From NCBI GenBank assembly GCA_964486825.1, contig CAZAQS010000002.1:100-64099 (forward strand): a stretch of DNA of 64,000 bases, in the 5' to 3' direction. Position 1 is the first letter of the stretch. Every line of letters starts with the position of its first letter. The notes below the pieces were generated by a model. It was not told the DNA's origin. It made no database searches and saw nothing but the letters and a program-made list of their open reading frames with translations. Shown here piece by piece: positions 18,363 to 33,839 of this stretch. A program made the position numbers and the translations under genes. This DNA is from an uncultured Anaerolineaceae bacterium. GTDB lineage: Bacteria > Chloroflexota > Anaerolineae > Anaerolineales > UBA4823.

Positions 18363-19199
18363 ATGGAAACGAGCATGTTCAGGAAAATCCCACAACGCTC
18401 GATACGGGGAATACGGCGACACTCGCCTTTCATCTTGATATTCTCTATAGGCCTGGCCATCCTCTTCTGGCAATTGTTGATAGAGTTTCGCGGCTATGCG
18501 CCTTATATCCTGCCTTCTCCAGGGCAGGTATGGGCGCGCTTTGTGCAGGCGTTATTGGATGGCACCCTTGTAAGGCATGGGATGGTGACGTTATCGGAAG
18601 TATTGGCGGGGTTGGCTTTAGGCGTCAGCGCAGCTACCACGCTGGGCTACCTGTTGGCCAAGTCTCCACAACTTGAGCGCTTCCTCTCGCCCTATATTGT
18701 TGCCAGCCAATCGGTACCGATTGTAGCCATCGCTCCCCTGCTCGTCATCTGGTTTGGGACGGGTTTGTATTCCAAGGTGTTGATCTGTGCGTTGATCGTT
18801 TTCTTTCCGGTGTTGATCAATACGGTCGTTGGGATGCGTTCGGTTCCCGAAAACCTGCGCGAACTTATGCGCTCGTTGCAGGCAACCCGCTGGCAGACTT
18901 TCACCATGCTTGAAGTGCCCGCCTCCTTGCCGGTTTTTTTAGGCGGATTGCGGATTGGAGCCACGCTCTCTGTGATTGGGGCGGTAGTGGGCGAGTTCGT
19001 CGGTTCGGACCGAGGTCTTGGTTTTTTGATCAGCGTCGGACGGGGTTTATACGATACCTCCCTGGTATTTGTGGCTGTCTTTACATTGATTGTCATGGCT
19101 ATGAGTTTATACGGATTGGTGCTCCTCATAGAAACACGTCTGCTTTCCTGGCAAAAACGACCAGGCCAGGCTATCTCAACAAATGTAGGAGTTGAATAA
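18363..19199 (+). CDS. ABC transporter permease, NitT/TauT (ThiX/RibX-like) family
   Basis: 278 aa, 6 TM; BPD_transp_1-type EAA loop region (LMRSLQATRWQTFTMLEVPASLP); first gene after the FMN riboswitch. Confidence 0.85.
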   Translation: METSMFRKIPQRSIRGIRRHSPFILIFSIGLAILFWQLLIEFRGYAPYILPSPGQVWARFVQALLDGTLVRHGMVTLSEVLAGLALGVSAATTLGYLLAKSPQLERFLSPYIVASQSVPIVAIAPLLVIWFGTGLYSKVLICALIVFFPVLINTVVGMRSVPENLRELMRSLQATRWQTFTMLEVPASLPVFLGGLRIGATLSVIGAVVGEFVGSDRGLGFLISVGRGLYDTSLVFVAVFTLIVMAMSLYGLVLLIETRLLSWQKRPGQAISTNVGVE

Positions 19200-19200
19200 G

Positions 19201-20191
19201 ATGTCCCGCCATCCCATGCCACTGTTTACCCTGATCTTCGCCCTGTTGTTTTCTGCTTGTGCGGGACCGGCGGCAGCTCCAGCCACTGCTGAGCTTACCC
19301 GAGTTCGTCTTCCGATGGGGTATATTCCGAATGTCCAATATGCTCCCTTCTATGTAGCTGTGGACAAAGGCTATTTTCGGGATGAAGGCATCGAGTTAGA
19401 GTTCGATTACAGCTTCGAAACGGATGGGATGGCATTGGTAGGCGTTAATAACCTTCAGTTCAGCCTTGCCTCCGGAGAGCAGATCTTGCTGGCCCGCTCT
19501 CAAGGTCTGCCCGTTGTCTATGTATATGGGTGGTGGCATGACTATCCTGTCTCGATTGCTGCCAAAGCGGGAAGCGGCATCGATACACCTGCAGAGCTGC
19601 GCGGGATGCGCATAGGAGTACCGATTTTGGCAGGGGCCAGCTATGTAGGCCTGCGCGCCATCCTGGCTGCCAATGGCCTGGAGGAGAGCGACGTAAAGCT
19701 GGAAGTGACCGGTTTCAACCAGGTTGAGGCTTTGATTTCAGACCAGGTGGACGCCGTAGTCGTGTACACCAATAACGAGCCTGTGCAGCTGCGGGCCAGG
19801 GGAGTGGAGGTGAACGAGTTCCGCGTTGTAGACTACGTTCACCTGGCCTCGAATGGCATCGTCACCAATGAGGTGACCATGCAGGAGAATCCGGATCTGA
19901 TAAGACGAATGGCTCGTGCACTGACACGAGGGATCGTCGATACTTTGCAAGACCCAGACGAGGCTTTCGAGATTTGCAAGAAATTTGGAAGGCCTGGCCC
20001 AGGCAGACCAGGACATCCAGGCTGTTCAAAAAGAGGTCCTGGCTACCTCGATCACTTTTTGGCAGAGCGATACATTGGGCAGGACCGACCGCGAGGCCTG
20101 GGAAAATATGCAGTCCGTTTTGCTTGAAATGGGTTTAATTCCTGAGCCTATCGACCTGGATCGGGCTTTCAGCAACGACTATCTGGAGTAA
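19201..20191 (+). pseudogene. NMT1/THI5-like (ThiY/RibY-like) substrate-binding lipoprotein gene, frameshifted near 19984
   Basis: Lipobox LLFSAC; the frame-0 product turns into Gly/Pro/Arg-rich nonsense after ...EAFEICKKF, while the +1 frame (19985-20191) reads LEGLAQADQDIQAVQKEVLATSITFWQ...AFSNDYLE and stops 7 nt before the next gene. Confidence 0.75.
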
Positions 20192-20198
20192 GTAATTA

Positions 20199-20978
20199 AT
20201 GGAAGCAGTCAGAGAAAAACGTCCTAAAGAGCCTGCGCTGAGAGTGCACAATGTAAGTGCTATATTCCCGAATGGGAACGGTGGCTTACGTGTCCTGGAG
20301 CACCTAGCTTTTTCTGTGCTCCCCCAGCAATTCCTATGTGTTTTAGGCCCCTCGGGGAGTGGGAAGAGCACCTTGTTGCGTATAATCTCCGGGCTGCTGG
20401 CGCCAACCGAGGGGGAAGTGCTGTATGATGGAGATAGCATATCCGGTCCTCGCCGTGGTGTGGGCTTCGTTTTTCAAAAAGCAAACCTGATGCCCTGGCG
20501 AACGGTGCTGGAAAATATCATGCTGCCGCTGGAGCTGCAGATGCTTCCCCGGATGGAAGCCCTCCGCCAGGCGCAAGAGTTGGTAGATTTGGTTGGGTTA
20601 GGGGGGTTCGAAGATTCCTTGCCGCGTGACTTGTCGGGGGGCATGGCTCAAAGAGTAGCCATCGCAAGAGCTCTGGTGCACGATCCGGATATCCTGTTAC
20701 TGGATGAACCATTTGGCTCATTGGACGCTCTGACTCGCGAGCGGATGGGGAATGAGCTGCTGCGGATCTGGCAGGTCCGCCGTAAGACGGTCGTGATGGT
20801 TACCCACTCCATTTCTGAAGCCCTCTTCCTGGCAGACAGGGTGGTTGTGCTCAGCCCTCGTCCCGGGCGCCTGCGGTTGGACCTGGAGGTGACCCTGCCA
20901 CGCCCTCGAGACGAGGAGATGATGTATACCACGGAGTTTGGACGGTTGTCGCGCATGCTTCGCTCGGCCATTGGATAG
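20199..20978 (+). CDS. ABC transporter ATP-binding protein (NitT/TauT family)
   Basis: Walker A GPSGSGKST; signature LSGGMAQRV; Walker B LLLDEPF. Confidence 0.9.
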   Translation: MEAVREKRPKEPALRVHNVSAIFPNGNGGLRVLEHLAFSVLPQQFLCVLGPSGSGKSTLLRIISGLLAPTEGEVLYDGDSISGPRRGVGFVFQKANLMPWRTVLENIMLPLELQMLPRMEALRQAQELVDLVGLGGFEDSLPRDLSGGMAQRVAIARALVHDPDILLLDEPFGSLDALTRERMGNELLRIWQVRRKTVVMVTHSISEALFLADRVVVLSPRPGRLRLDLEVTLPRPRDEEMMYTTEFGRLSRMLRSAIG

Positions 20979-21100: not shown

Positions 21101-22030
21101 ATGCCTAAGATCCTGCTCCTGATATTCGTCTTATCAGCTATTCTCAGCCCGCTCTCTCCCGCGCAAGCGCAAAGTCCAGTGGCCATCGAATCCCTCAAAG
21201 TTGAGCTTTGGCCAGAATACGACCAGCCCTCTATCCTGGTCATCTACCGTTTCTCCCTTTCTTCTGACTCCTCCCTGCCAGCCCAGTTGAAGCTTCGCAT
21301 CCCCACAGCTGCCGGGGAACCATTCGCAGTGGCTGTAGGTCCAAGCAGCGATAGGGTAGCGGATGTCCCATATCAGCGTACGGTTATGGGAGAATGGACG
21401 GAGGTCAGCTTTGCAGCGACCATGCCCTTCATCCAATTCGAATACTACGACCCAGGATTGGAAAGGCAAAATTCAGAGCGCTCCTTTGAGTATCACTGGA
21501 CCGGAGATTATGGAGTGCAATCATTGGTTGTTGAGGTCCAGCAGCCGGTTGATGCTACAGATATGAGGATTTCCCCTAGTCTAGGAAGAGGGGAAACCCG
21601 GGGAGATGGCCTGGTTTACTACACATCGCAGGTTGGTTCGTTGAGCGCTGGCCAAACCTTCTCGATCATCTTCGAATACCAGAAACCCCATGAGGTATTA
21701 AGCGCCACGCGTTTGTCTGTTGAACCCAGCCAACCCCTTACTGCCGATACAACCGGTAGGATTCGCCTGGAAAGCTTCTTGCCCTGGGCGCTCGGATTGC
21801 TGGGCTTGGTATTGATCGGAGGGGGAGGCTATTGGTATTGGCAGGTGGGACGCAGGGAGCCTCAATCGAGAGCAAAAACCAGGTCCAGAGGCCGGCGCCG
21901 GCAGGTAGAGCGGGCTGAAGAAGAGGAGGGGGAAATACCAGAGGCGGGTGTTTATTGCCACCAATGCGGCAAACGAGCTTCCTCAAATGATCGTTTCTGC
22001 CGCTCCTGCGGTACCCGTTTGCGGTCCTAA
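21101..22030 (+). CDS. Secreted-domain / TM / zinc-ribbon protein
   Basis: Signal peptide ...SPAQA-QS; extracytoplasmic domain of about 190 aa; TM WALGLLGLVLIGGGGYWYW; Arg/Glu-rich tail; C-terminal YCHQCG-x8-DRFCRSCG. Confidence 0.7.
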   Translation: MPKILLLIFVLSAILSPLSPAQAQSPVAIESLKVELWPEYDQPSILVIYRFSLSSDSSLPAQLKLRIPTAAGEPFAVAVGPSSDRVADVPYQRTVMGEWTEVSFAATMPFIQFEYYDPGLERQNSERSFEYHWTGDYGVQSLVVEVQQPVDATDMRISPSLGRGETRGDGLVYYTSQVGSLSAGQTFSIIFEYQKPHEVLSATRLSVEPSQPLTADTTGRIRLESFLPWALGLLGLVLIGGGGYWYWQVGRREPQSRAKTRSRGRRRQVERAEEEEGEIPEAGVYCHQCGKRASSNDRFCRSCGTRLRS

Positions 22031-22237
22031 GCAGGCGCTCCCGGTTCGTGAAAAGGTTCTCATTTGCTTTTTTACTTCATCTTAGATTGTATTAATCAAG
22101 GGTTATAAAAACTACGTTACACTATAAACGAATTCGCCAAATCTGTCCCTTAGTTTTGTCGTGTAATTCGGACTGATTGTGTAAAATCATAGGCATTATT
22201 AGAATTCTAGCTATCATCCTATTTGGAGGTCTTGGGA

Positions 22238-22747
22238 ATGGAACAGACGCTGAAACGTCCAGGGGGTTTACAAAACCGTGCCAAGTTTCTTGCAGGGGGC
22301 TTATTGATTATAGCCGCCGTTGTGTATCTCATTTTTTCATCCACTCAACTTAATGCCCAATACTTCTTGACTGTAAATGAACTGGCTGCCAGGGCTGAAG
22401 GCGCATATGACAGGCATATCCGGGTATCGGGCGCTGTCCTGGGTGATACTATCCAGTATGACTCTCAATCGCTAACCCTGAGATTTACAGTCGCACATGT
22501 CCCCGGAAGCAACCGCGAGATCAATGAGCAGGGTGGCCTGGCAAAGGTCCTGCACGACGCAGTCAATGACCCCAATCGAGCTCGCATTCCGGTTGTTTAT
22601 AATGGGCCTAAGCCAGACCTTCTCCAGCACGAAGCTCAAGCAATTATGACCGGGCAGTTGGGTGACGATGGAATATTTTATGCAGAAGAGCTGTTATTAA
22701 AGTGCCCGACCAAATACGAAGAATCGGTTGGTGAACAGGCAGGGTAA
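22238..22747 (+). CDS. ccmE: Cytochrome c maturation heme chaperone CcmE, CxxxY variant
   Basis: N-terminal TM anchor, OB-fold-length body, C-terminal LLLKCPTKYEE aligning with the canonical LAKHDENY; ATG 22238 behind GGAGG. Confidence 0.85.
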   Translation: MEQTLKRPGGLQNRAKFLAGGLLIIAAVVYLIFSSTQLNAQYFLTVNELAARAEGAYDRHIRVSGAVLGDTIQYDSQSLTLRFTVAHVPGSNREINEQGGLAKVLHDAVNDPNRARIPVVYNGPKPDLLQHEAQAIMTGQLGDDGIFYAEELLLKCPTKYEESVGEQAG

Positions 22748-22812
22748 ATAGCTCGATAACTAATTGCCATTTAGATGGGTATGCTTTTCGATAGATCTGG
22801 GAGCCATAATTT

Positions 22813-24879
22813 ATGATAGCCAATTTAGGATTCGGTGCGTTATTCATTACTTTCCTGGTTTCGATCTATGGAGTAGCAGCCGCCATTTACGGGGTGCGGA
22901 AAAACGCACATGAATGGGTTGAGAGCGCTCGGATAGCCATGCTGTTGACTTTCCCTCTGCTCACCCTTTCCGCTCTAAGCCTGATCATTCTGCTGATCAC
23001 AGAGCAGTACCAGGTAGAGTATGTGGCTCTGGTAAGCAGCAGAAGCATGCCCATGTATTTGAAGGTGACTGCTCTATGGGGTGGCCAGGCGGGCTCCTTG
23101 CTATTCTGGTCCTGGCTGATGTCTGTTTTCGCATCTGCTGTTACCCTAAGGAAATGGCACCGCGACCGGGAGCTTCTCCCCTGGGTGATCGTGGTTTCTT
23201 TGGTTACACTGGGGTTTTTCCTCGTGATGATCATTTTCTTTGAAAATCCTTTCGACCGGTTGTGGGAGAGCGCGACGGCAATCACAGCCTCGATCTTGCG
23301 GCCAGCGGGTAGCCTTCCGTATATCCCGCGGGATGGAAACGGGCTAAACCCCTTGCTGCGACACCCGGGCATGATTATTCACCCTCCAATGCTGTACCTG
23401 GGATTTGTCGCTTTTGTGATCCCCTTTGCATTTGCGATCGCTGCCCTGGTTACAGGTCGTACCGATGACCGCTGGATCCGAATCACCCGCCGTTGGACGC
23501 TGGTGGCCTGGCTGTTTCTCTCGCTGGGCCTGGTTCTGGGCAGCCGTTGGGCCTACGATGTGTTGGGTTGGGGAGGGTACTGGGCCTGGGATCCGGTGGA
23601 AATTGCTGCGTTCATGCCATGGCTTTCCGGTACGGCCTTTCTACACTCCGTCATGATCCAGGAAAAGCGCGGCATGCTGAAACACTGGAACATGGTCCTG
23701 ATCATCCTAACCTATTCATTGGTAATTTTCGGTACTTTCCTGACTCGATCGGGTGTGCTTTCTTCGGTGCACGCCTTCGCCCAAAGCGCTATCGGGCCGC
23801 TCTTCTTTCTGTTCATCGGGGTCACCTTCGTGACATCACTCGCCCTGCTTTTACATCGTTGGGGTGAGCTGAAATCAGAAGGTTCCATGACATCGATGTT
23901 CTCGAGGGAAGCATTGTTTTTATTGAATAACCTGCTCTTTATGGGCATACTGGTGGTATGTTTTTGGGGTGTCATCTTCCCCTTGATCTCAGAGTTGTTC
24001 AATGGGGAGAAGGTTACGGTTGGACCACCTTACTACCAACAAGCTACCGGACCGCTCTTTGCCGGGTTGCTGCTCTTGATGGGAATTGCCCCTCTGGCAG
24101 CCTGGCGACATTCAAGCTCAAAGACCCTAGGTAAAGCCATTTGGAAGCCTTTCCTGGCTTCCTTGGTTGTTGTTGGTGTAACCCTGTATTCAGGTGTCAG
24201 GCAGCCGGCCGCCCTGCTGGGAATATGGCTCTCAGCGCTGGTCATTTTCGTGACCTTGTATGAGTTCTGGCGGGGAGCTTACGCCCGCCATCGAAAGAAT
24301 GGGGAAAGCCTGCCCGTTGCGTTATGGCGCCTGGCTGGACGTAACCGTAGGAGGTATGGAGGTTATATCATCCACCTGGGGGTGGTATTGATGGCCATTG
24401 GTATCATCGGCATCGAGGTTTTCCAGTCTGAGACCCAGGGCACTGTCCCCCAAGGCGGTGAATTGCGCCTGGGTCAGTACCGCATGACCTACAATTCCCT
24501 GGCTATGTGGGATACGAACGATGGCCGTAATGTTGCCCGGGCAGTTGTCAGTGTGTACAAGGATGACAAGTACATGGGCGACCTGTACCCCCGCCGGGAT
24601 TACTATTATGAATCTCAACAGCCTATGACCATCCCCGGGGTACGCAGTACTCTGGAGGATGACTTCTATGTGCTGTTGGTTGATTGGGAGCCCATTTCTA
24701 CCCAGGGTGCGACCTTTAAGGTCTTTCACAATCCCCTGATCAATTGGCTGTGGATCGGAGGATGGGTTTTCATTCTCGGGACGATGGTGGCAGCCTGGCC
24801 CGAGCATGAGAAGGAACCGGCCAAAGTGCGCGCACGTACTCCCGTTCCCTCTTCCAAGACCTCCAGGACGACTGCTTAA
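22813..24879 (+). CDS. ccmF: Cytochrome c heme lyase subunit CcmF
   Basis: 688 aa polytopic; WWD motif WGGYWAWDPVE. Confidence 0.92.
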   Translation: MIANLGFGALFITFLVSIYGVAAAIYGVRKNAHEWVESARIAMLLTFPLLTLSALSLIILLITEQYQVEYVALVSSRSMPMYLKVTALWGGQAGSLLFWSWLMSVFASAVTLRKWHRDRELLPWVIVVSLVTLGFFLVMIIFFENPFDRLWESATAITASILRPAGSLPYIPRDGNGLNPLLRHPGMIIHPPMLYLGFVAFVIPFAFAIAALVTGRTDDRWIRITRRWTLVAWLFLSLGLVLGSRWAYDVLGWGGYWAWDPVEIAAFMPWLSGTAFLHSVMIQEKRGMLKHWNMVLIILTYSLVIFGTFLTRSGVLSSVHAFAQSAIGPLFFLFIGVTFVTSLALLLHRWGELKSEGSMTSMFSREALFLLNNLLFMGILVVCFWGVIFPLISELFNGEKVTVGPPYYQQATGPLFAGLLLLMGIAPLAAWRHSSSKTLGKAIWKPFLASLVVVGVTLYSGVRQPAALLGIWLSALVIFVTLYEFWRGAYARHRKNGESLPVALWRLAGRNRRRYGGYIIHLGVVLMAIGIIGIEVFQSETQGTVPQGGELRLGQYRMTYNSLAMWDTNDGRNVARAVVSVYKDDKYMGDLYPRRDYYYESQQPMTIPGVRSTLEDDFYVLLVDWEPISTQGATFKVFHNPLINWLWIGGWVFILGTMVAAWPEHEKEPAKVRARTPVPSSKTSRTTA

Positions 24880-24885
24880 GACGTT

Positions 24886-25362
24886 ATGAAACATTTGTCA
24901 TTGTTCTCGCTACTTGTGATTGGTCTGGCGCTCATTTTTACTGGAGCAGCGCTTGCACAAGAAACTGTGCCCTCGGATGATGAGGTGAATGCTATCGCAA
25001 AAGAGATCTACTGTCCGGTATGTGAAAACACTCCCCTGGATGTTTGTCCTACTCAAGTTTGCTCTCAATGGCGTGAGTTGATCCGCGAGCAGCTTGCCAT
25101 GGGGTGGAGCGATTTGCAAATCCGCCAGTATTTTGTCAACCAGTACGGGGATCGGGTCCTGGCTACTCCGCCTGCGCGTGGGTTCAACTGGCTTGTATAT
25201 ATCCTTCCGCCGCTAGCTATTCTAGCGGGCGTCTTCGTCCTGGTCCGGACCATCAGAAATTGGAAAAAGCCACTTACGGATATAGACGTGGAGACAGCAG
25301 TTACGATCGAAGAAGGCGATGAGTATGTGGCGCGCCTGGAACAAGAGCTTCGCAATCGTTGA
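24886..25362 (+). CDS. ccmH: Cytochrome c maturation protein CcmH
   Basis: Signal peptide; CPVC redox motif; ...QYGDRVLATPP...; C-terminal TM. Confidence 0.85.
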   Translation: MKHLSLFSLLVIGLALIFTGAALAQETVPSDDEVNAIAKEIYCPVCENTPLDVCPTQVCSQWRELIREQLAMGWSDLQIRQYFVNQYGDRVLATPPARGFNWLVYILPPLAILAGVFVLVRTIRNWKKPLTDIDVETAVTIEEGDEYVARLEQELRNR

Positions 25363-25416
25363 AGCTTGGCATTCAATTCCCTGGAAAGGCCTGGATAGAT
25401 TGAGAGAAAGAGAAGG

Positions 25417-25998
25417 ATGACTGAATTTTCTCAGGATAAACCTTTACAAAAGACTGAGGTGGAAACGAAAACCGGCGCCCGCCGCACAGGCCATTTGCTG
25501 GCTTGGGGAGGGCTGTTGGTCCTACTTGCCATTTTAGCGCTAGGTCTGGATCGTTCTCAAAAAGGACCTGTCTCTGAGGGACAGCGTGCTCCTAACTTTA
25601 CTTTGACCACCTTCGATGGGGAAGAAATTACTTTGGAATCCCTGCGTGGGAAGGCAGTCGTGGTTAATTTCTGGGCATCCTGGTGTAAACCGTGTGAACA
25701 AGAGGCCGCCGATCTAGAGAAAGCCTGGCGAAATTACGAGCCCACGGGCAAGGTCATGTTCTTGGGCGTAGATTATATCGATACTGAACCGGAAGCAAAG
25801 GCTTACCTGGAAAAGTTTGACATTACCTATCCGAACGGCCCGGATATACGGACGAGGATTTCGCAAGCTTACCGAATTGCAGGCGTTCCAGAAACCTACT
25901 TCATTAATCAGGAAGGCGAGGTTATCTATAAAAAAATCGGTCCCTTCACCCGTTATGAAGACATTACCAGGGTTATCGACTCCATGCTCCAGCCTTGA
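25417..25998 (+). CDS. ccmG: Thiol:disulfide oxidoreductase CcmG/DsbE (TlpA family)
   Basis: TM anchor; thioredoxin motif NFWASWCKPCEQE; position inside the ccm cluster. Confidence 0.85.
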   Translation: MTEFSQDKPLQKTEVETKTGARRTGHLLAWGGLLVLLAILALGLDRSQKGPVSEGQRAPNFTLTTFDGEEITLESLRGKAVVVNFWASWCKPCEQEAADLEKAWRNYEPTGKVMFLGVDYIDTEPEAKAYLEKFDITYPNGPDIRTRISQAYRIAGVPETYFINQEGEVIYKKIGPFTRYEDITRVIDSMLQP

Positions 25999-26031
25999 AC
26001 AGGCTGAACTACCTTCTCTGACTATTCGATT

Positions 26032-26583
26032 ATGGACATTGGCTCAATTTTCCTGATCCTCGCAATGCTGGCAGTTGTTGTCTTGCTGGTCAGCCGCCCG
26101 TTGTTTTCACGTAAAAACTTACCGGTCTTTGAGCTTACTGACCGGCAAGACCACGAGTATTCGGCGCTCCTGGCGGAGCGCGATCGGGTGCTGTTGGCGC
26201 TGGAAGAGCTGGACTTCGACTATACCATGGGTAAGATCCCCGAAGAGGATTATCCATCTCAACGCGCTCAACTACTTCAGACCGGAGCAGAGATTCTCCG
26301 AAGGCTGGATGAGTTTAATGTATCCGGAAAGAGAGCCATTGATGAGAATCCCGAAGCTCGGATAGAAGCTTCCCTTTCAGAGAAGCGCACAGTTCGTCCG
26401 GCTCCTGCTGCTGTCGGGACAGCCATAAATGGAGGTGAAGGCGCGGATGACGATCTGGAGGTATTGATCGCCACCCGTAGACGCGCAAGGGAGGGAAAAT
26501 CCGCCGGGTTCTGTCCTCAATGCGGTGGGGCCCTTCAAAAGGCGGATCGCTTTTGTCCCAAGTGTGGGGCCACGGTCAAGTGA
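26032..26583 (+). CDS. TM protein with CcmI-N-terminal-like motif and C-terminal zinc ribbon
   Basis: N-terminal TM; EYSALLAERDRVLLALEELDFDYTMGKIPEEDYPSQRAQLL resembles the cytoplasmic loop of CcmI/CycH; ends in FCPQCG-x7-DRFCPKCG. Confidence 0.7.
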   Translation: MDIGSIFLILAMLAVVVLLVSRPLFSRKNLPVFELTDRQDHEYSALLAERDRVLLALEELDFDYTMGKIPEEDYPSQRAQLLQTGAEILRRLDEFNVSGKRAIDENPEARIEASLSEKRTVRPAPAAVGTAINGGEGADDDLEVLIATRRRAREGKSAGFCPQCGGALQKADRFCPKCGATVK

Positions 26584-26618
26584 AACAGCTCACCCAAATT
26601 CCTTTTCTTTCCTTTCAG

Positions 26619-28505
26619 ATGTTTATGAAGAGAATCCGATTGGTTCTGATTACGGGCCTTGTGCTGATCCTGTCTGCCTGCTCCATTTCCCTGGCGGAGG
26701 ACATCGCCCCGCCACCTGGTGCGCAGCAACAACCAGCCCCGGCTGAGCAGAGCCAGCAAGTCAGCGGACCTCATTATCCCTTAGTGCCTCCTAACCCAGA
26801 AAATGGCGCTCCCATCTATGCCGAGAAGTGCGCTCCCTGCCATGGGGATACCGGGCAGGGGGATGGCCCCCAGGCTTCTCAGCTGCCCAACCCAACCACA
26901 CCTATTGGCTCCAGAGAAGTAGCCCGCAGGGCATCTCCCCAAGACTGGTATGCTGTCGTAACCAACGGCAACATGGAGCGTTTGATGCCTCCCTTCACCA
27001 GTTTATCCGATACTGAGCGTTGGGATGTGGTCGCGTATGCTTATACGTTAAGCATGACTGAAGAGGAGCTGGCACTTGGTAAGGAAATCTACCAGGCGAA
27101 CTGCGCCGCATGCCATGGCGAGAACGGGAATGGTAGAGGTTCTCAAGCCAGTAGCCTGTCTACTCCACCCTCAGATTTTACAAGCCAGGCATTCATTGCG
27201 CAGTACTCAACTGCCAATTTTTATCAGGCTGTCTCGGATGGATCAGCCGGAGATATGCATGCCTTCGAAGGTGTTCTGGAAGAGGATGAGATTTGGGCAG
27301 TCTCCTCCTATGTACGTAGCCTGGGATTTTCCAGCAGTGACGCATCTGAAATGGCGGAGTCAACCGCCCCCGCTCAACCCTCTTCCGATGAGCCCGCTAC
27401 CACCGCCGAAATGGGGGAGGGCAAAGTTCGCGGTACGATCTTCAACGGTTCCGGTGGAGGGCTGCCTGAAGACCTGATCATCACGCTCCACGCTTTTGAC
27501 GGCATGCAGATCGTATACACCGATACCACTACTCCCCTTGAGGATGGCTCCTACCAGTTTGAAAACGTAGAAATGGCGCCTGAGCGCCGGTTCTTGGTTT
27601 CCACTGAATACGGTCAGGCCACTTATATTTCAAGCCTGGCATCCGTAGACGTGGGAGGCCAGGATATCGCTCTGGATGTGACCGTTTACGATACGACCTC
27701 CGATCTTTCTGGTCTATCCGTCGAGCGGCTGCATATCTTCTTTGAATTTGGTGAGGAAGAGATCGTCCAAGTTGTGCAATTGTTCATCTTTGCCAACGAT
27801 AGTAATAAAACCATCATCCCGTTTCACGACGGTGGACCGGTAGTAGAATTTGCGCTCCCAGAAGGGGCTATGAACCTGCAGTTTCAGGATGGAGTCCTGG
27901 GCGAGCGCTACCTCCAGACACCCACCGGTTTTGCGGATACAGTCGCTGTCCGTCCTGGATCGGGGGAATACCAGGTCTTGTTTGCTTTCGATATGCCTTA
28001 TAAGCGGAAGCTTGATATCGTCCAACCGATCAATCTTCCTGTTGAAGCAGCCGTCGTTATGCTCCCTGAAGATGGGGTGAAAGTACGCAGTGACGTCCTT
28101 GTCGATGAAGGGCCACGTCCTGTGCAGGGAAGGACGTTGCGCATCTTCAGCGCCAATAATTTGGAAGCAGGCAGTATTCTGGATATCAACCTGTCTGGCG
28201 GCCTGGGCTCGGGTTTTTCGCTCACATCAGACTCGAATACCAGCCTCGTGATTGGCCTGGGTTCTTTCGGTCTGGTGATGATTATCGCCGGTGTCTGGCT
28301 TTTCTTCCGGAACCAGGACAAAACTCGTAACCTGGAAGGAGAGCTGGAAGAGGAGACAGAGCAGTACACTGAGGATGACGTCGATAGCTTAATGGATGCC
28401 ATTATCGCCCTGGATGACCTTTATGCCGAAGGGCAGCTGCCTGAAGAAGCTTATCGCAAGCGTAGGGCGGAGTTAAAAGAACGCTTGAAGGAGATTTCGG
28501 GCTAG
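26619..28505 (+). CDS. Membrane-anchored dihaem c-type cytochrome lipoprotein with a large extracytoplasmic extension
   Basis: Lipobox LILSAC; two CxxCH sites (CAPCH, CAACH); CarboxypepD_reg-like segment; a further beta-rich domain; C-terminal TM plus charged helical tail; start set at ATG 26619 (the 26520 extension overlaps the previous gene). Confidence 0.85.
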   Translation: MFMKRIRLVLITGLVLILSACSISLAEDIAPPPGAQQQPAPAEQSQQVSGPHYPLVPPNPENGAPIYAEKCAPCHGDTGQGDGPQASQLPNPTTPIGSREVARRASPQDWYAVVTNGNMERLMPPFTSLSDTERWDVVAYAYTLSMTEEELALGKEIYQANCAACHGENGNGRGSQASSLSTPPSDFTSQAFIAQYSTANFYQAVSDGSAGDMHAFEGVLEEDEIWAVSSYVRSLGFSSSDASEMAESTAPAQPSSDEPATTAEMGEGKVRGTIFNGSGGGLPEDLIITLHAFDGMQIVYTDTTTPLEDGSYQFENVEMAPERRFLVSTEYGQATYISSLASVDVGGQDIALDVTVYDTTSDLSGLSVERLHIFFEFGEEEIVQVVQLFIFANDSNKTIIPFHDGGPVVEFALPEGAMNLQFQDGVLGERYLQTPTGFADTVAVRPGSGEYQVLFAFDMPYKRKLDIVQPINLPVEAAVVMLPEDGVKVRSDVLVDEGPRPVQGRTLRIFSANNLEAGSILDINLSGGLGSGFSLTSDSNTSLVIGLGSFGLVMIIAGVWLFFRNQDKTRNLEGELEEETEQYTEDDVDSLMDAIIALDDLYAEGQLPEEAYRKRRAELKERLKEISG

Positions 28506-28521
28506 CCGGACTTTAGATCCT

Positions 28522-29259
28522 ATGATTGAAGTGCGCCAATTGGTCAAGCGTTTTGGGTTGAAACCTGTCTTGCGCGGATTGGATTTCCATGTCCAGGAAG
28601 GCGAGTTTGTGGCTTTACTAGGACCAAATGGAGCTGGTAAGACGACCTTTTTGCGTATCCTGTCATCGTTGTCTCGGCCTACTTTGGGAGAGGTAGCGAT
28701 TGCGGGATACCGCTTGCCAGCTCAAGCTGCTGCTGTCCGGCAGCGCTTGGGAGTGGTTTCTCACTTGCCCCTGTTGTATGGCGATCTTACAGCGGAAGAA
28801 AATTTGCGTTTTTACGGAAAAATGTACGGCGTAAAGAACCTGGATAAGCGCTCAGATTCCGTCCTGGAGATGGTGGGTCTCGATCACCGCCGTCGTGACC
28901 TGGTGCGTACTTTTTCACGCGGCATGCAACAGCGTCTGGCAATCGGGCGGGCAGTCTTGCATGACCCGGATGTGATGCTCTTTGATGAACCCCATACCGG
29001 GCTGGACCAGGATGCCTGCCGGATGTTGGATAATGTACTAAGAGAAGTAGCTGCTGCTGGGCGAACGGTTGTGATGACATCGCATGACCTGGCTCGGGCA
29101 GCCGATCTGGCCTCGCGCTTTGATGTGATCTCCAAGGGCTTCATCGTTGCCTCAGAGCAGGGATCGGCCATCCCTGTCGATGGCTTGTTGGCTTTCTACC
29201 GGGAGGCTCTCAGCAGTGAGCACCTGCTTTCCAAGGAGGAGGCCGTCCATGCGCTCTGA
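28522..29259 (+). CDS. ccmA: Heme exporter ATP-binding protein CcmA
   Basis: Walker A GPNGAGKTT; signature-like FSRGMQQRL; Walker B MLFDEPH; followed by ccmB and ccmC. Confidence 0.88.
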   Translation: MIEVRQLVKRFGLKPVLRGLDFHVQEGEFVALLGPNGAGKTTFLRILSSLSRPTLGEVAIAGYRLPAQAAAVRQRLGVVSHLPLLYGDLTAEENLRFYGKMYGVKNLDKRSDSVLEMVGLDHRRRDLVRTFSRGMQQRLAIGRAVLHDPDVMLFDEPHTGLDQDACRMLDNVLREVAAAGRTVVMTSHDLARAADLASRFDVISKGFIVASEQGSAIPVDGLLAFYREALSSEHLLSKEEAVHAL

Positions 29260-29965
29260 TATTGCTGTACAGGCGCCCAGAGTGGGAGGATTGGCTGGAT
29301 TCATGCGGGCGTTGTGGGCGGTTGTGTGGAAGGATCTGGCTGCCGAGCTGCGCAGCCGCGAGCTGATATCCGCCATGCTGGTGTTTGCACTGCTGGTCAT
29401 TTTTATCTTCAACTTTGCCCTGGAGCTCGAACCTGGTACCAGCGCTTCTGTGACCTCTGGTGTGCTTTGGGTTACCTTTGCTTTTGCGGGAACCCTCGGC
29501 CTGACTCGTTCGATGGCTATGGAAAAGGACCGTGGATGCCTGGACGGGCTGCTGCTCGCACCCGTTGACCGCAGCGCCATCTATTTTGGTAAAGCTCTAG
29601 GAAACCTGATATTCATCCTTTTGGTGGCGGTGATCGTTTTACCTGTCTACAGCATTCTGTATAATATCAACCTGTTCATCCCGGGTCTCCTGGTCGTGAT
29701 CCTGTTGGGCTCGATTGGTTATGTTGCCGTGGGCACTCTCCTTTCCAGCATGGCGGTTCAAGCTCGTACCCGGGACATGCTCTTGCCAATCTTATTGTTC
29801 CCGGTAGTAATCCCGATCCTGATAGCGGCTGTGAAGAGCAGCAGTGGTTTTATCGCCGGGTTCGAAATGTCCGAGATCTGGCCATATCTTAATTTACTGA
29901 TCGTCTACGACGTCGTCTTTACCTCGATCGCTTTTATGGTTTTTGACTACGTGGTAGAAGAATAA
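29249..29965 (+). CDS. ccmB: Heme exporter membrane protein CcmB
   Basis: 6-TM protein; ATG 29249 behind AAGGAGGA, overlapping the ccmA stop; the 29147 extension lies inside ccmA. Confidence 0.85.
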   Translation: MRSDIAVQAPRVGGLAGFMRALWAVVWKDLAAELRSRELISAMLVFALLVIFIFNFALELEPGTSASVTSGVLWVTFAFAGTLGLTRSMAMEKDRGCLDGLLLAPVDRSAIYFGKALGNLIFILLVAVIVLPVYSILYNINLFIPGLLVVILLGSIGYVAVGTLLSSMAVQARTRDMLLPILLFPVVIPILIAAVKSSSGFIAGFEMSEIWPYLNLLIVYDVVFTSIAFMVFDYVVEE

Positions 29966-30015: not shown

Positions 30016-30714
30016 ATGGAAGCAAAACCTCGTTTTCTAATGACCCTTGATATCGTCACTGTGGCGCTGTTCCTGGTAGCAACCGCTATGGTGTTTTTTT
30101 ATGCCCCCATGGAAGTTTCTATGGGCCAGGTGCAAAGGGTTTTCTATTTTCATGTTGCCTCTGCCTGGGTGGGCATGCTCGGATTCCTGGTAGCTGCAGT
30201 CGCCGGGATTGGATACCTGCGCACTGGCAAACGTAGCTGGGATAACGTCAGCCTGGCAGCAGTGGAGATCAGTGTGGTCTTTCTCTTGATCGCAATCGTA
30301 TCGGGGTCGATCTGGGCCCGGCCGATCTGGAATACCTGGTGGACCTGGGACCCCCGCCTCACAACCACAACCATTATGGTCCTGATCTATGCTGCTTACC
30401 TGATGCTGCGTTCAGGTATCGAGGACCCAGACAGGCGAGCCCGCTTTGGCGCGGTATACGCTATCGTAGGATTTGTTAGTGTGCCCCTGACCTTTCTTTC
30501 TATTCGCATCTTCCGCACTATCCACCCGGTTGTAATCGGATCCGGAGACCCGACTGCGGAGGGCACTTTCGATATGTCAACTCGCATGCTGCATACCTTT
30601 ATCTTTGGCCTGATCGTTTTCTCGGTGATTTTTGTCAATTTGCTTTGGCATCGGGCTCGCCTGGGTGGCCTGGCCGACAAGGTAGAGCAGCTTAAACTTA
30701 AGCTCGTGGAGTAA
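30016..30714 (+). CDS. ccmC: Heme exporter protein CcmC
   Basis: WWD motif WARPIWNTWWTWDPRLT; 232 aa polytopic. Confidence 0.9.
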   Translation: MEAKPRFLMTLDIVTVALFLVATAMVFFYAPMEVSMGQVQRVFYFHVASAWVGMLGFLVAAVAGIGYLRTGKRSWDNVSLAAVEISVVFLLIAIVSGSIWARPIWNTWWTWDPRLTTTTIMVLIYAAYLMLRSGIEDPDRRARFGAVYAIVGFVSVPLTFLSIRIFRTIHPVVIGSGDPTAEGTFDMSTRMLHTFIFGLIVFSVIFVNLLWHRARLGGLADKVEQLKLKLVE

Positions 30715-30719
30715 TTAAC

Positions 30720-30980
30720 ATGGCTATGAATATTCCCTTATCTCTCTCCGGCTTTAATGAAGCCTTCCGCCTTTTCTTGCAAACCCAACAGGTAACGCCG
30801 GATACAAGTAGTTATATGATCGCCGGCTTCGTCGTGATCTTCGGAACCATGCTGGTCTATATAGCCAGTCTTGTTATCCGCTGGCGTAACTTGCAAAGTG
30901 ACCTGCAGATGCTTCATGAATTGGAGAAAAGACAACAGGCGCCTCTCAGTTCTGCAAGTCAGGTCGAAAAGGTCGCATAA
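30720..30980 (+). CDS. ccmD: CcmD-like small membrane protein
   Basis: 86 aa; single TM YMIAGFVVIFGTMLVYIASLVIRWR followed by a charged tail; position directly after ccmC. Confidence 0.55.
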   Translation: MAMNIPLSLSGFNEAFRLFLQTQQVTPDTSSYMIAGFVVIFGTMLVYIASLVIRWRNLQSDLQMLHELEKRQQAPLSSASQVEKVA

Positions 30981-31133: not shown

Positions 31134-31340
31134 TGCTGTCCTGGCTGTCCTAATCTATTTTGCTCCTTAATGGCTTTGATGGAGCATTTCAGATTGGTAG
31201 GGTTGGCATAGTTTGTGCACAAACATATGGGGTAGCTGTTTTACTTCTGGTCAGGTCTGGCTGGCTCTTGCTATCCTGATAGAAATGCTGGACTGGCTTC
31301 TATCTTGAGATATTGCCGGCTGAAGGAGATGCCGCCACTG

Positions 31341-33839
31341 ATGAAAAGCCTTCATATATTGGCAGTAGAAGAATCTGGTGAAGAGCTGGATGTGTTTTTT
31401 CAGCAATTGGAAACTGGTGGATACAGCACAGTCGCGCAGAGAGTGAATACCGCTTCTGCCTTATCATCCGCCCTGGATTCTAAAGCATGGGATCTGGTTG
31501 TAGCCCGCTATCCGATGTTCTCGCTCAATGGATCCTCTGCTCTCAGCTTCCTTCAAGACCGGGGTCTGGACATACCCTTGATCCTGGTGGCTGAGAAGGA
31601 ATCCGAAGTGGCTGCAATCCAGGCGATGAAAGCTGGAGCAACGGATTATGTGGTCATAGAAAATCCAGCCCGTTTCCTGCCCATCGTAGAACGGGAGTTA
31701 AGGGACCTACAGGCCAGGCGAGATGGTAAACGGGCAGAAAAGGTATACGCAGCTTCCTACAAGATCTCGGAAAGCGCCAGCAGCGCCGAGAACCTGCAAG
31801 AGCTTTTCCAATCCATTCACGCTATCGTGGGTGAACTCATGCCTGCGAATAATTTTTATATATCCCTCTATGACAAGACAACAGACCTGATCACTTTTCC
31901 TTATTATGTCGATGAAAACGACTCCCCACCTGGCCCCAACCGACCGGGGAAAGGCTTGACCGAATACGTTTTGCGCACTGGTAAACCATTGCTTGCTCCA
32001 GAGGATATTTTCAAGCAGTTGGAGGCTGCTGGTGAGGTTGAGTCGATTGGATCGCCTTCCGTAGATTGGCTGGGTGTCCCTTTAAAAGCTGAGGAAGAAA
32101 TCATCGGCGTCCTGGTTGTCCAGAGTTATACCGGGGGGGTCCACTTTAGTGAAGAAGACCTGAATATCCTGTGTTTTGTATCAACCCAGGTAGCAATGGC
32201 AATTGCCAGAAAACAAGCCGATGAGAAGCTGCGCCAAAGCGAGCTCCGTTACCGCAGCCTGTTTGAAAATTCGCCGATTTCCCTCTGGGAAGAGGATTTT
32301 TCCGGTGTAAGAAAGTTCTTTAATGAATTACGTCTGCAGGGGATCATTGATTTCAAGGCTTACCTCAATAAGCATCCGGAAGCCGTTGACGAATGCCTCC
32401 AACGCATTAAGGTATTGGATGTCAACCAGGCTACCGTCAAACTGTATAAGGCGCACAGCAAAGAAGAGTTGATTTCAAATTTGCCGAGAATATTTGGAAC
32501 AAATGCGAGGAATATTTTCAAGCTGGAGTTGTTAGCAATTGCTGATGGCAAGCGCGAGTTTGAAGGCGTAGGGGTCAATTATAAATTGACTGGTGAACCT
32601 ATCTACTTTATCTTGCGTTGGTCCATCTCGCCCGCCTACGAGCATACCTTATCGAGAGTCATCGTTTCGATATTTGATATCACAGAAAGACAGAAAGCCG
32701 AAGAGCAAATCCAATCCCAACTTCAACGTCTGGCAGCTCTGCGGACCATTGATATGGCTATCACCGCCAGCCTGGATTTGAGGGTCACGCTGGATGTGCT
32801 GTTGGACCAGGTCACCTCCCAGTTGCACGTAGATGCTGCCGGGGTCTTGTTGCTCAACCCTCATACCCAACTGTTGGAATTTGTAGCCGGAAGAGGTTTT
32901 CGGGGGAGTGGGTTGGGTCCCCAAAACCATCTTCTAAGCGAGGATTATACCGGGCAGGCTATTTTGGAACGCCGCACGATAACCATTCAAGAATTAGGAG
33001 AGATGCGCGACCTGCGCAGGGTGCAGCTGTTTCGGGAAGAGGAGTTCAAGACTTATTTTGTGGTTCCCCTGGTTGCAAAAGGGCAGGTCAAAGGTGTCCT
33101 GGAAGTCTTTACCCGCACACATCTCTCACCGGACCCGGAATGGTACGACTTTCTTGAAACCCTGGCAGGCCAGACCGCCATTGCAATTGATAATGCTTCC
33201 CTTTTTGAAAACCTGCAACGATCAAATATCGAGCTGGCCATGGCTTATGATGCGACGATTGAAGGTTGGTCGCGTGCCCTGGATATGCGCGATCGGGAGA
33301 CTGAAGGCCATACGGAGCGCGTCACCGAGATGACTTTGCGATTAGCAGAAGCCATTGGTATCAAAAAAGATTCCATGGTTCATATCCGCCGGGGGGCATT
33401 GCTGCACGATATCGGTAAGATGGGTATCTCCGATAGCATCCTTTTAAAGACCGGGCCGCTCGATGATGAAAAGTGGAAGATCATGCGCATGCATCCGGTA
33501 TATGCTTACGACTTGCTCGCACCCATCACTTATCTAAAACCTGCCCTGGATATTCCTTATTGCCACCATGAGAAATGGGATGGAAGTGGCTATCCGCGCG
33601 GCTTAAAAGATGAACAAATCCCCCTGGCAGCCCGTATCTTCGCCGTGGTGGACGTTTACGACGCTCTGCGGTCCGACCGGCCTTACCGGAAAGCCTGGCC
33701 TGAGGATAAGGTCCGGCAATATATCCGCGAACAATCGGGGAAGCATTTTGATCCTCAGATTGTAGATCTGTTTATGACTTTCCTTGAGAATGGGGGCATT
33801 CAGCATACCGAAGAGAGTTCGACTCCCCTCGATCCATAG
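31341..33839 (+). CDS. Pseudo-receiver / GAF / PAS / GAF / HD-GYP domain protein (probable c-di-GMP phosphodiesterase)
   Basis: C-terminal HD...HDIGK...HHEKWDGSGYPRGL motifs; REC-like N-terminus lacking the acceptor Asp; start uncertain (31329 or 31341). Confidence 0.88.
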   Translation: MKSLHILAVEESGEELDVFFQQLETGGYSTVAQRVNTASALSSALDSKAWDLVVARYPMFSLNGSSALSFLQDRGLDIPLILVAEKESEVAAIQAMKAGATDYVVIENPARFLPIVERELRDLQARRDGKRAEKVYAASYKISESASSAENLQELFQSIHAIVGELMPANNFYISLYDKTTDLITFPYYVDENDSPPGPNRPGKGLTEYVLRTGKPLLAPEDIFKQLEAAGEVESIGSPSVDWLGVPLKAEEEIIGVLVVQSYTGGVHFSEEDLNILCFVSTQVAMAIARKQADEKLRQSELRYRSLFENSPISLWEEDFSGVRKFFNELRLQGIIDFKAYLNKHPEAVDECLQRIKVLDVNQATVKLYKAHSKEELISNLPRIFGTNARNIFKLELLAIADGKREFEGVGVNYKLTGEPIYFILRWSISPAYEHTLSRVIVSIFDITERQKAEEQIQSQLQRLAALRTIDMAITASLDLRVTLDVLLDQVTSQLHVDAAGVLLLNPHTQLLEFVAGRGFRGSGLGPQNHLLSEDYTGQAILERRTITIQELGEMRDLRRVQLFREEEFKTYFVVPLVAKGQVKGVLEVFTRTHLSPDPEWYDFLETLAGQTAIAIDNASLFENLQRSNIELAMAYDATIEGWSRALDMRDRETEGHTERVTEMTLRLAEAIGIKKDSMVHIRRGALLHDIGKMGISDSILLKTGPLDDEKWKIMRMHPVYAYDLLAPITYLKPALDIPYCHHEKWDGSGYPRGLKDEQIPLAARIFAVVDVYDALRSDRPYRKAWPEDKVRQYIREQSGKHFDPQIVDLFMTFLENGGIQHTEESSTPLDP

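Follow-up and report, generated by a model that had tools for sequence, protein, structure and literature searches.

The cytochrome c maturation (ccm) locus described here raises the question of what stands in for CcmI in an operon where no CcmI of the tetratricopeptide repeat (TPR) type was found. The locus lies in a 64,000-nucleotide stretch of contig CAZAQS010000002.1 (GenBank assembly GCA_964486825.1) from an uncultured Anaerolineaceae bacterium of the Chloroflexota, and this whole stretch is called the window below. Two of its genes, here named B and C, stand between ccmG and ccmA, and a third, A, is found 5' of ccmE. Among the pathways of cytochrome c maturation, System I is the most elaborate. 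Its handling of unfolded apocytochrome and the actual contribution of CcmI are still matters of debate (PMC3601427). We found that B and C are fixed, lineage-specific components of the Anaerolineae operon, which is of the System I* type, and that they are as fixed in it as the canonical ccm genes. The ccm genes themselves are ordinary; B and C are the new part. With a probability of roughly 40%, we infer that the two proteins jointly take the place of CcmI, as a substitute made of two chains.

Conservation of B and C in the ccm operon

Eighty species-representative loci fetched around B, and three others (L001–L003), were compared together with their 10-kb flanks. The order ccmE-F-H-G-B-C-ccmA-B-C-D was kept wherever the contig reached. 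Clustering of the flanking open reading frames (ORFs) from 81 loci recovered B in all 81, ccmG in 80 of them and C in 79 of them. Counts for the remaining ccm genes were 68–77 loci, numbers that are limited by contig ends, and the next commonest flanking families were found in 24 of the 81 at most. Called genes overlap in L003. A preliminary description of the window, made from the sequence alone, had picked out A, B and C, placed the latter two between ccmG and ccmA, and reported that a TPR-type CcmI was missing. The three ORFs are present at the coordinates given there, and the position of B and C recurs across the related Anaerolineae loci (81/81 and 79/81). When the 64-kb window and all locus flanks were searched by phmmer with four CcmI/CcmH proteins, a CcmI of the TPR type was found in none of them.

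System I* is marked by a cysteine variant of CcmE, and Chloroflexi have been named among its carriers (PMC3601427). The CcmE encoded in the window ends in LLLKCPTKYEE, and KCPTKY (CxxxY in place of HxxxY) was present in 59 of 67 related loci, which assigns the operon to this type.

Homologues of B formed more than 2,000 clusters, those of the C-terminal part of C about 712 and those of A about 1,506, all from Anaerolineae-type Chloroflexota assemblies. At least 353 GTDB species genomes encode B, and 752 representatives (at 50% identity) matched its N-terminal part at E ≤ 1e-10. A search of a representative library with residues 1–98 of B gave 2,973 matches, and all 150 among the matches listed belonged to the B family. 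The database names of B and C are generic or wrong ("zinc ribbon domain-containing protein", "rubrerythrin", "NudC" and "mono/diheme cytochrome c family protein").

Architecture of B and C

Topology was called from hydropathy and flank charges (positive-inside rule), and the family profiles used with hhalign were enriched with sequences from 80 species. AlphaFold2 models were made of A and of residues 260–628 of C, and were searched with Foldseek against 350,542 PDB chains. The features of the two proteins are as follows (TM, transmembrane).

26032–26583, + strand: gene B, 183 amino acids, with an N-out TM helix, a cytoplasmic helical hairpin, a variable linker and a cytoplasmic zinc ribbon (ORF)
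26038–26094, + strand: TM helix of B, residues 3–21, nearly invariant in the family (hydropathy, flank charge)
26149–26316, + strand: cytoplasmic helical segment of B, residues 40–95, LLAERDRvLxALxELDFDxxxGKIPEEDYPxQRAxLL (hhalign to the C tail; TIGR03142; GvpG)
26509–26574, + strand: zinc ribbon of B, residues 160–181, CPQC-x10-CPKC (PF13240)
26619–28505, + strand: gene C, 628 amino acids, with a lipoprotein signal, dihaem cytochrome c, CarboxypepD_reg-like domain, ribophorin-like ectodomain, TM helix and cytoplasmic hairpin (ORF)
26619–26678, + strand: lipoprotein signal peptide of C, lipobox LSAC, modified cysteine at residue 21 (lipobox; LPAM_1 matches)
26793–27323, + strand: dihaem class I cytochrome c region of C, residues 59–235, CcoP-like (PF13442, PF00034, TIGR00782)
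27414–27686, + strand: CarboxypepD_reg-like beta sandwich of C, residues ~266–356 (PF13620; strands E7–E97 of the fragment model)
27714–28199, + strand: ectodomain of C, residues ~366–527, homologous to that of A, ribophorin I/Ost1-like fold (hhalign, Foldseek)
28245–28301, + strand: TM helix of C, residues 543–561 (hydropathy, flank charge; helix 283–317 of the modelled fragment)
28380–28499, + strand: cytoplasmic helix-turn-helix hairpin of C, residues 588–627, LMDAIIALDDLYAEGQLPEEAYRKRRAELKERL (model; GvpG matches; hhalign to B)

The TM helix of B is preceded by MD and followed by RPLFSRK. By the positive-inside rule this makes the protein N-out and C-in, with both the helical segment (which reads LDFDYTMGKIPEEDYPSQRAQL at residue 60) and the zinc ribbon in the cytoplasm. 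The ribbon scored 24.1 bits against PF13240, just below the cutoff of 25, and the model matched 106 of 118 diverse B members (best E 1e-9). Residues 1–150 were not recognised by Pfam or NCBIfam.

In C, a CcoP-like dihaem cytochrome c with a lipid anchor is followed on the same chain by a beta sandwich, an ectodomain, a TM helix and a hairpin. Its longest ORF begins at 26520, and the public gene call begins with MKRIR at 26625. The haem sites are CAPCH at residue 71 and CAACH at residue 162. The region around them belongs to class I by its matches to PF13442 (E 1.6e-27, 96.1 bits) and PF00034 (E 4e-24, 86.2 bits), and its sequence matches in the PDB were 6h5l_B and the CcoP chain 3mk7_C. Among 73 full-length homologues, 65 carried the lipobox and 62 carried two CxxCH sites. 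Pfam and NCBIfam recognised nothing in residues 240–628 of C. PF13620 (CarboxypepD_reg) gave no match to the window protein at E ≤ 0.1, but it matched 34 of 64 family members (best E 3e-7), and the region was modelled as an eight-strand sandwich, in support of the CarboxypepD_reg-like segment noted earlier in this protein. The fragment model had a mean predicted local distance difference test score (pLDDT) of 84.1. After the TM helix comes RNQDKTR, which places the last 65 residues in the cytoplasm. In the model these residues do not form a single helix: fragment helices 329–344 and 350–368 (pLDDT about 90) are joined by a turn at G-x-L-P, and the motif at residue 598 reads LDDLYAEGQLPEEAYRKRRAEL.

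Homologues of C that lack the cytochrome domain, such as P0342, were considered as a natural variant and rejected: they come from a contig with many frameshift errors, where a gene fragment upstream encodes the missing cytochrome part. On this contig (L092), the gene calls break ccmE, ccmF, C and a GH3 gene into two or three pieces each.

Modules shared by A, B and C

Gene A was the third member of the set in the preliminary description, and its features are listed here.

21101–22030, + strand: gene A, 309 amino acids, with a signal peptide, beta ectodomain, TM helix, arginine-rich linker and zinc ribbon (ORF; AlphaFold2)
21173–21745, + strand: ectodomain of A, residues 25–215, two beta-sandwich subdomains, ribophorin I/Ost1-like fold (model strands E28–E194; Foldseek; hhalign)
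21767–21823, + strand: TM helix of A, residues ~223–241 (hydropathy, flank charge; model helix 223–251)
21953–22021, + strand: zinc ribbon of A, residues 285–307, CHQC-x10-CRSC (PF13240)

The signal peptide of A is of the cleavable type, and the arginine-rich C-terminal flank of its TM helix points to a cytoplasmic tail. Its model had a pLDDT of 87.8, and residues 25–280 were not recognised by Pfam or NCBIfam.

The helix of B and the tail of C share 15 of 38 residues (BLASTP E 0.001), and the profiles of the two families aligned over 42–48 columns with an hhalign probability of 93–95% (P 4.5e-7 to 5.9e-8). Judged from these comparisons, the two hairpins are homologous, in keeping with the likeness of their PEE-x-Y helices stated in the preliminary description.

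The ectodomains of A and C were not significantly similar by BLASTP (E 0.76). Their profiles, compared with hhalign as the preliminary description had proposed, scored 31.8 (P 3e-4), against 9.9–19.1 for thirty column-shuffled controls, 12.8–13.1 for one-sided reversals and 16.5 for the CarboxypepD_reg-like part of C, which served as an unrelated beta domain. A relaxed alignment was colinear over the whole ectodomain, from the first strand (LWPEYD in A, FFEF in C) to the last (SIIFEY and LDINLSG). Searched separately, the A and C models returned the identical six best PDB matches, all of them ribophorin I/Ost1 chains (8pn9_E, 6s7o_E, 6s7t_E, 8b6l_O, 6c26_1 and 6ezn_A), and the next matches were to the N-terminal beta domain of M1 aminopeptidases and to 3kd4_A. 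We take the two ectodomains to be homologous and to define a family that has no Pfam model, and the alignment proposed earlier is thereby upheld.

The likeness to ribophorin I shows a resemblance of modelled folds, not homology. PF04597 (Ribophorin_I) did not match the A protein or the C fragment of the window at E ≤ 1, and for the 62 A and 64 C members it was absent from the 25 families with the most frequent matches. When PDB sequences were searched with profiles of A, B and C, the results were confined to zinc-ribbon noise and cytochromes, and no Ost1 chain was found. An earlier profile search for prokaryotic homologues of Ost1 likewise gave no promising candidates (PMC4973528).

The zinc ribbons of A and B are alike, as had been claimed (BLASTP E 1e-5; hhalign P 1e-17). 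The ribbon of A scored 27.7 bits against PF13240, above the cutoff of 25, and was present in 62 of 62 A-family members. Both ribbons, however, fit the generic Pfam model Zn_Ribbon_1, so their likeness marks them as members of a very large family and does not set the two apart as particular relatives. The motifs quoted in the preliminary description are all present; its ribbon spacers of 8 and 7 residues need correction, as CG and DRFC are separated by 6 residues in both proteins and the pattern is CxxC-x10-CxxC. The similarities that had suggested swapped modules are thus real, but the two short modules, ribbon and helix, are generic and give weak evidence for recent swapping.

Genomic context of A

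A is a single-chain paralogue that joins the same ectodomain as that of C, a TM helix and the same kind of zinc ribbon as that of B. Its place in the genome is a different one. In 6/6 look-ups centred on A, a trio of permease, NMT1-type binding protein and ATPase genes of an ATP-binding cassette (ABC) transporter stood directly 5' of it, and the ccm operon was beside it in only one (1/6). The other five loci, with no nearby ccm genes, had convergent multihaem cytochrome genes instead. The cytochromes near A (L091, L093, L095, L096 and L098) were MtrC-like proteins of ~730 amino acids and NapC/NirT-type proteins, with a Rieske/cytochrome b complex fused to cytochrome c domains in some loci. Among the 80 B-centred loci, A preceded ccmE in only about 15, and in two of these (L026 and L031) it stood beside ccmE where the transporter genes were not present. 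A is therefore not a core or fixed ccm component; it makes up, as fourth gene, a unit with the NMT1-type ABC transporter, and this unit tends to adjoin cytochrome c genes. The proposal of a lineage-specific accessory set for System I is accordingly supported for B and C, as lineage-specific members of the operon, and is not supported for A.

One A-family protein (P0213, 487 amino acids) has two tandem copies of the ectodomain ahead of the TM helix and zinc ribbon. A two-component pair (HisKA_3 kinase and GerE-type response regulator) recurs just 5' of ccmE or next to A (L001 3358–5625, L096 4032–6165, L098 11727–12936), in 22–23 of 81 ccm loci, and may regulate these cytochrome gene clusters.

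Resemblance of B to CcmI and a proposed role for the pair

The most frequent match of the B family other than zinc-ribbon models was TIGR03142, the model of the CcmI N-terminus. It matched residues 7–82 of the window protein (14.8 bits, E 0.027). At E ≤ 1 it recognised 22 of 40 B members, and at the stricter E ≤ 0.1 it still recognised 25 of 118 in a more diverse set, with a best E of 3.7e-5. CcmI sequences taken from Pseudomonas, Rhizobium and Serratia plasmid records have the layout seen in B, a TM helix followed after ~15 residues by a second helix, and the Rhizobium loop LLELDREVETNQLGRNEYEYARAEV aligns without gaps to LEELDFDYTMGKIPEEDYPSQRAQL of B. The CcmH linker of E. coli was tried as a comparison for the B helix and set aside, as it has no CcmI-type helix; the plasmid-encoded CcmI proteins were used in its place. 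B has one hydrophobic segment, with no second TM helix, and no TPR domain was matched in it by Pfam or NCBIfam. By sequence, B resembles the CcmI-1 part of CcmI and fails formal membership of that family.

We propose that B and C would act as a CcmI split over two chains. The two proteins would pair through their homologous cytoplasmic hairpins, and if they do so, the pair reproduces the layout of CcmI, in which two TM helices are combined with a helical element in the cytoplasm and a domain outside the membrane. Pairing would also reproduce the layout of A. A single device would then exist in two forms, one as A (ectodomain, TM helix and ribbon) and one divided between C (ectodomain, TM helix and hairpin) and B (TM helix, hairpin and ribbon). 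That A joins the ectodomain of C and the ribbon of B in one chain is the pattern expected if B and C cooperate. CcmI-1 of Rhodobacter capsulatus associates with CcmF/CcmH, and by analogy the membrane and cytoplasmic part of B would dock with these proteins. The preliminary description had made B the substitute and given its zinc ribbon the place of the TPR domain. This idea has to be dropped, since the positive-inside rule puts the ribbon in the cytoplasm, where it cannot replace a periplasmic domain. The ectodomain of C is the better candidate: it would take over from the TPR domain and handle unfolded apocytochrome outside the membrane, and the dihaem domain of C would serve as a built-in first client or as an electron-input module.

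Several observations weigh against this proposal. All TIGR03142 matches of B members fall below the curated cutoff of 29.3 bits, and against a four-sequence profile of the CcmI N-terminus hhalign gave P values of only 0.0018 for B and 0.001 for the C tail. The gas-vesicle family GvpG (PF05120) matched the hairpin at a level similar to CcmI (window B E 0.019, 15.6 bits; window C 13.8–14.9 bits; neither reaches the cutoff of 30.6 bits), and it matched 63 of 64 C-tail members (best E 3e-6) and 22 of 118 B members. SHOCT (PF09851) matched more weakly (3 of 64 C members), and the coiled-coil models GspM, CpoB and Rad50 also scored. Because these models match as well, the motif may be a generic oligomerisation hairpin, and the resemblance to CcmI claimed earlier is recurrent without being specific. 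We know of no link between a ribophorin-like beta domain and the binding of apocytochromes. The search for CcmI covered the 64-kb window and the locus flanks, a part of each genome, and a canonical CcmI may be encoded elsewhere; the contacts of B with C and with CcmF/H are hypothetical. The CcoP-like dihaem domain of C, finally, fits an ordinary respiratory role equally well.

Alternative explanations

Such a respiratory role is the core of an alternative that we regard as unlikely but worth serious attention. C could be mainly a membrane-anchored dihaem electron carrier, similar to CcoP or to the tethered cytochromes of monoderms, and be cotranscribed with the ccm genes as their main client. 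B would then be a small assembly or regulatory partner, and neither protein would take part in haem ligation. The class I, strongly CcoP-like scores of the cytochrome region agree with this, as do the retention of the CxxCH pair (62/73) and lipobox (65/73) in full-length homologues and the below-threshold likeness of B to CcmI. Left unexplained are the large conserved ectodomain of C with its TM helix and hairpin, the hairpin common to B and C, and the position of both genes inside the operon, between ccmG and ccmA and not at one end, in every locus.

The context of A suggests another role for the shared architecture, which we hold to be distinctly unlikely: a device of ectodomain, TM helix and cytoplasmic ribbon that regulates or scaffolds an ABC transporter. 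A would serve the NMT1-type importer encoded upstream, and B and C, joined by their hairpins, would serve the CcmAB(CD) haem-release complex encoded downstream. A directly follows the gene of an ABC ATPase in 6/6 look-ups centred on A and in the majority of the B-centred loci, only 16 bp lie between the end of C and ccmA, and the architecture of A equals the ectodomain of C plus the ribbon of B. However, ccmF-H-G stand immediately 5' of B and C, and the order of the genes therefore fits this model and the two-chain CcmI substitute alike. In L026 and L031, A lies beside ccmE without ABC genes. To our knowledge there is no precedent for control of an ABC ATPase by a zinc ribbon.

A bolder idea, and one we consider more doubtful still, is that A and the B–C pair are bacterial counterparts of ribophorin I in working principle. 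By this analogy the beta-saddle ectodomain would catch unfolded, exported apocytochrome c as it leaves the Sec channel and hold it for the haem lyase CcmF/H, which is embedded in the membrane. Through its TM helix and zinc ribbon the device would be anchored on the cytoplasmic side, to the ribosome, the translocon or an ABC ATPase, and export and haem attachment would be coupled.

It is very unlikely, in our estimate, that the dihaem domain of C passes electrons from the respiratory chain to CcmG/CcmH or to haem, supplementing or replacing the CcdA/DsbD route. A precedent exists in the dihaem cytochrome c NapB, which restores maturation in a Shewanella dsbD mutant, the data of its authors suggesting reduction of CcmG (PMC8782879). 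C lies one gene downstream of ccmG, after B, and no homologue of the CcdA/DsbD membrane domain was found in the 64-kb window or in any 10-kb flank, although CcdA may be encoded outside the regions searched. Maturation of C depends on the Ccm system in its turn, and the ectodomain, the hairpin and B would have no explanation.

Mere coincidence of common building blocks (a Zn_Ribbon_1 ribbon, a GvpG/SHOCT-like hairpin and a beta sandwich) in three functionally unrelated proteins is highly improbable: both ribbons do match the generic Pfam model at 24–28 bits, the match of the hairpin to GvpG is as good as that to its partner hairpin, and the gene context of A differs from that of B and C, but B and C are neighbours in every locus, the ectodomains of A and C, which have no Pfam family, match each other well above controls and share their best PDB matches, and A is always near cytochrome c genes.

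Operon layout and other features of the window

On the + strand the genes run in the order NMT1-type ABC transporter, A, ccmE, ccmF, ccmH, ccmG/ResA-like gene, B, C, ccmA, ccmB, ccmC and ccmD-like gene. The genes other than A, B and C are listed below.

18363–20978, + strand: NMT1-type ABC transporter, consisting of permease, binding protein (frameshifted) and ATPase (Pfam)
18363–19199, + strand: permease of the NMT1-type transporter
19192–20127, + strand: NMT1-family binding protein
20199–20978, + strand: ATPase of the NMT1-type transporter
22223–22747, + strand: ccmE, CPTKY cysteine variant (Pfam, NCBIfam, CcmE motif)
22813–24879, + strand: ccmF (Pfam, NCBIfam)
24886–25362, + strand: ccmH (Pfam, NCBIfam)
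25417–25998, + strand: ccmG/ResA-like thioredoxin gene (Pfam, NCBIfam)
28522–29259, + strand: ccmA (Pfam, NCBIfam; position conserved across loci)
about 29255–29965, + strand: ccmB (Pfam, NCBIfam; position conserved across loci)
30016–30714, + strand: ccmC (Pfam, NCBIfam; position conserved across loci)
30720–30980, + strand: small ccmD-like TM gene (position conserved across loci)

From ccmE onward the intergenic gaps are −5 to 65 bp (ccmG–B 33 bp, B–C 35 bp, C–ccmA 16 bp), and around A they are wider (122 bp on its 5' side and 192 bp on its 3' side). A promoter and terminator scan gave 12 promoter-like sites where 10.2 were expected, with no convincing site between A and ccmE. All public sequencing runs that contain the window sequence come from metagenomes of soil or volcano sites and were classified as probable DNA runs, none as RNA.

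In the CcmH homologues inspected (83 aligned), the C-terminal tail (25240–25362), after the TM helix, carries the conserved cytoplasmic motif DEYVxRLEEELRKR. It was tried as a relative of the B/C hairpin, and no relationship was detectable. The gene of the NMT1 binding protein (19192–20185) has a frameshift near 19980, after which similarity to the L003 orthologue runs on in another frame to ~20185. The ORF's own tail (GRPGPGRPGHPG...) is out of frame, and the gene is affected either by an assembly error or by pseudogene formation. Elsewhere in the window, 15686–17767 (− strand) encodes a predicted lipoprotein of 693 amino acids built of repeated units of ~120 residues, with one weak DUF3828 match. 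Directly 3' of the ccm operon, 31305–33839 (+ strand) encodes an 844-residue protein that combines a receiver domain and two GAF regions with an HD domain (Pfam HD_5, HD). A penicillin-binding transpeptidase fused to a C-terminal M23 peptidase is encoded at 35602–37836 (− strand) and adjoins a gene of the FtsW/RodA family (37833–39230).

Implications

In a large and environmentally abundant bacterial class, with B encoded in at least 353 species genomes, CcmI appears to have given way to two different proteins, one of them a cytochrome c fused to a beta-rich ectodomain of no annotated family. If B and C do substitute for CcmI, a TPR chaperone can be replaced by an unrelated fold, the ectodomain of C is a new domain family with a testable ligand, and the pair is a natural split CcmI in which the membrane and periplasmic roles could be studied separately. 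For annotation, the comparison identifies thousands of entries named "zinc ribbon domain-containing protein", "rubrerythrin" or "NudC" as ccm-operon genes.

Comparison with known systems

The operon has the KCPTKY form of CcmE in common with System I*; it differs in that CcmH is present in the window operon. B and C are an addition to that system, and no paper found in our literature search describes or mentions them.

With CcoP and the tethered class I cytochromes c, C shares two class I domains with CxxCH sites (residues 59–235; TIGR00782, 3mk7_C). Its score of 64.6 bits is far from the ccoP cutoff of 180 bits, the cytochrome is fused to about 390 further residues (beta domains, TM helix and hairpin), and the gene belongs to a ccm operon, not to an oxidase operon.

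GvpG and SHOCT match the B/C hairpin recurrently, and the model of C shows a helix-turn-helix. The scores of the window proteins are nonetheless below the Pfam cutoffs, the hairpin follows a TM helix in adjacent ccm-operon proteins, and gas-vesicle genes were not found near B and C.

Ribophorin I belongs, without being catalytic itself, to the eukaryotic oligosaccharyltransferase, an enzyme of the membrane whose substrates are polypeptides that have just been exported. Ribophorin I/Ost1 is the best fold match in the PDB for the models of A and C, with a probability of 1.00, E values of 2e-8 to 1e-4 (5e-8 for A) and modest TM-scores of 0.30–0.45, and the N-terminal beta domain of M1 aminopeptidase matches almost as well. 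The layouts agree in that a beta ectodomain of two lobes is followed by one TM helix and a tail in the cytoplasm, whereas the context of A and C is bacterial and unrelated to glycosylation.

B resembles CcmI/CycH in its N-out TM helix followed by a cytoplasmic helix; the form L-x-E-L-D-x6-G-x-[IL]-x3-[DE]-Y-x3-R-A-x-[LV] of this helix aligns without gaps to the Rhizobium loop, but at an hhalign P of only 0.0018 and with GvpG matching as well. B is encoded in a ccm operon with no other CcmI candidate in the window or flanks. Unlike CcmI, it has one TM helix instead of two and a cytoplasmic zinc ribbon as its C-terminus in place of a TPR domain, and the extracytoplasmic part that would complete it lies on a separate protein, C, as an all-beta domain.

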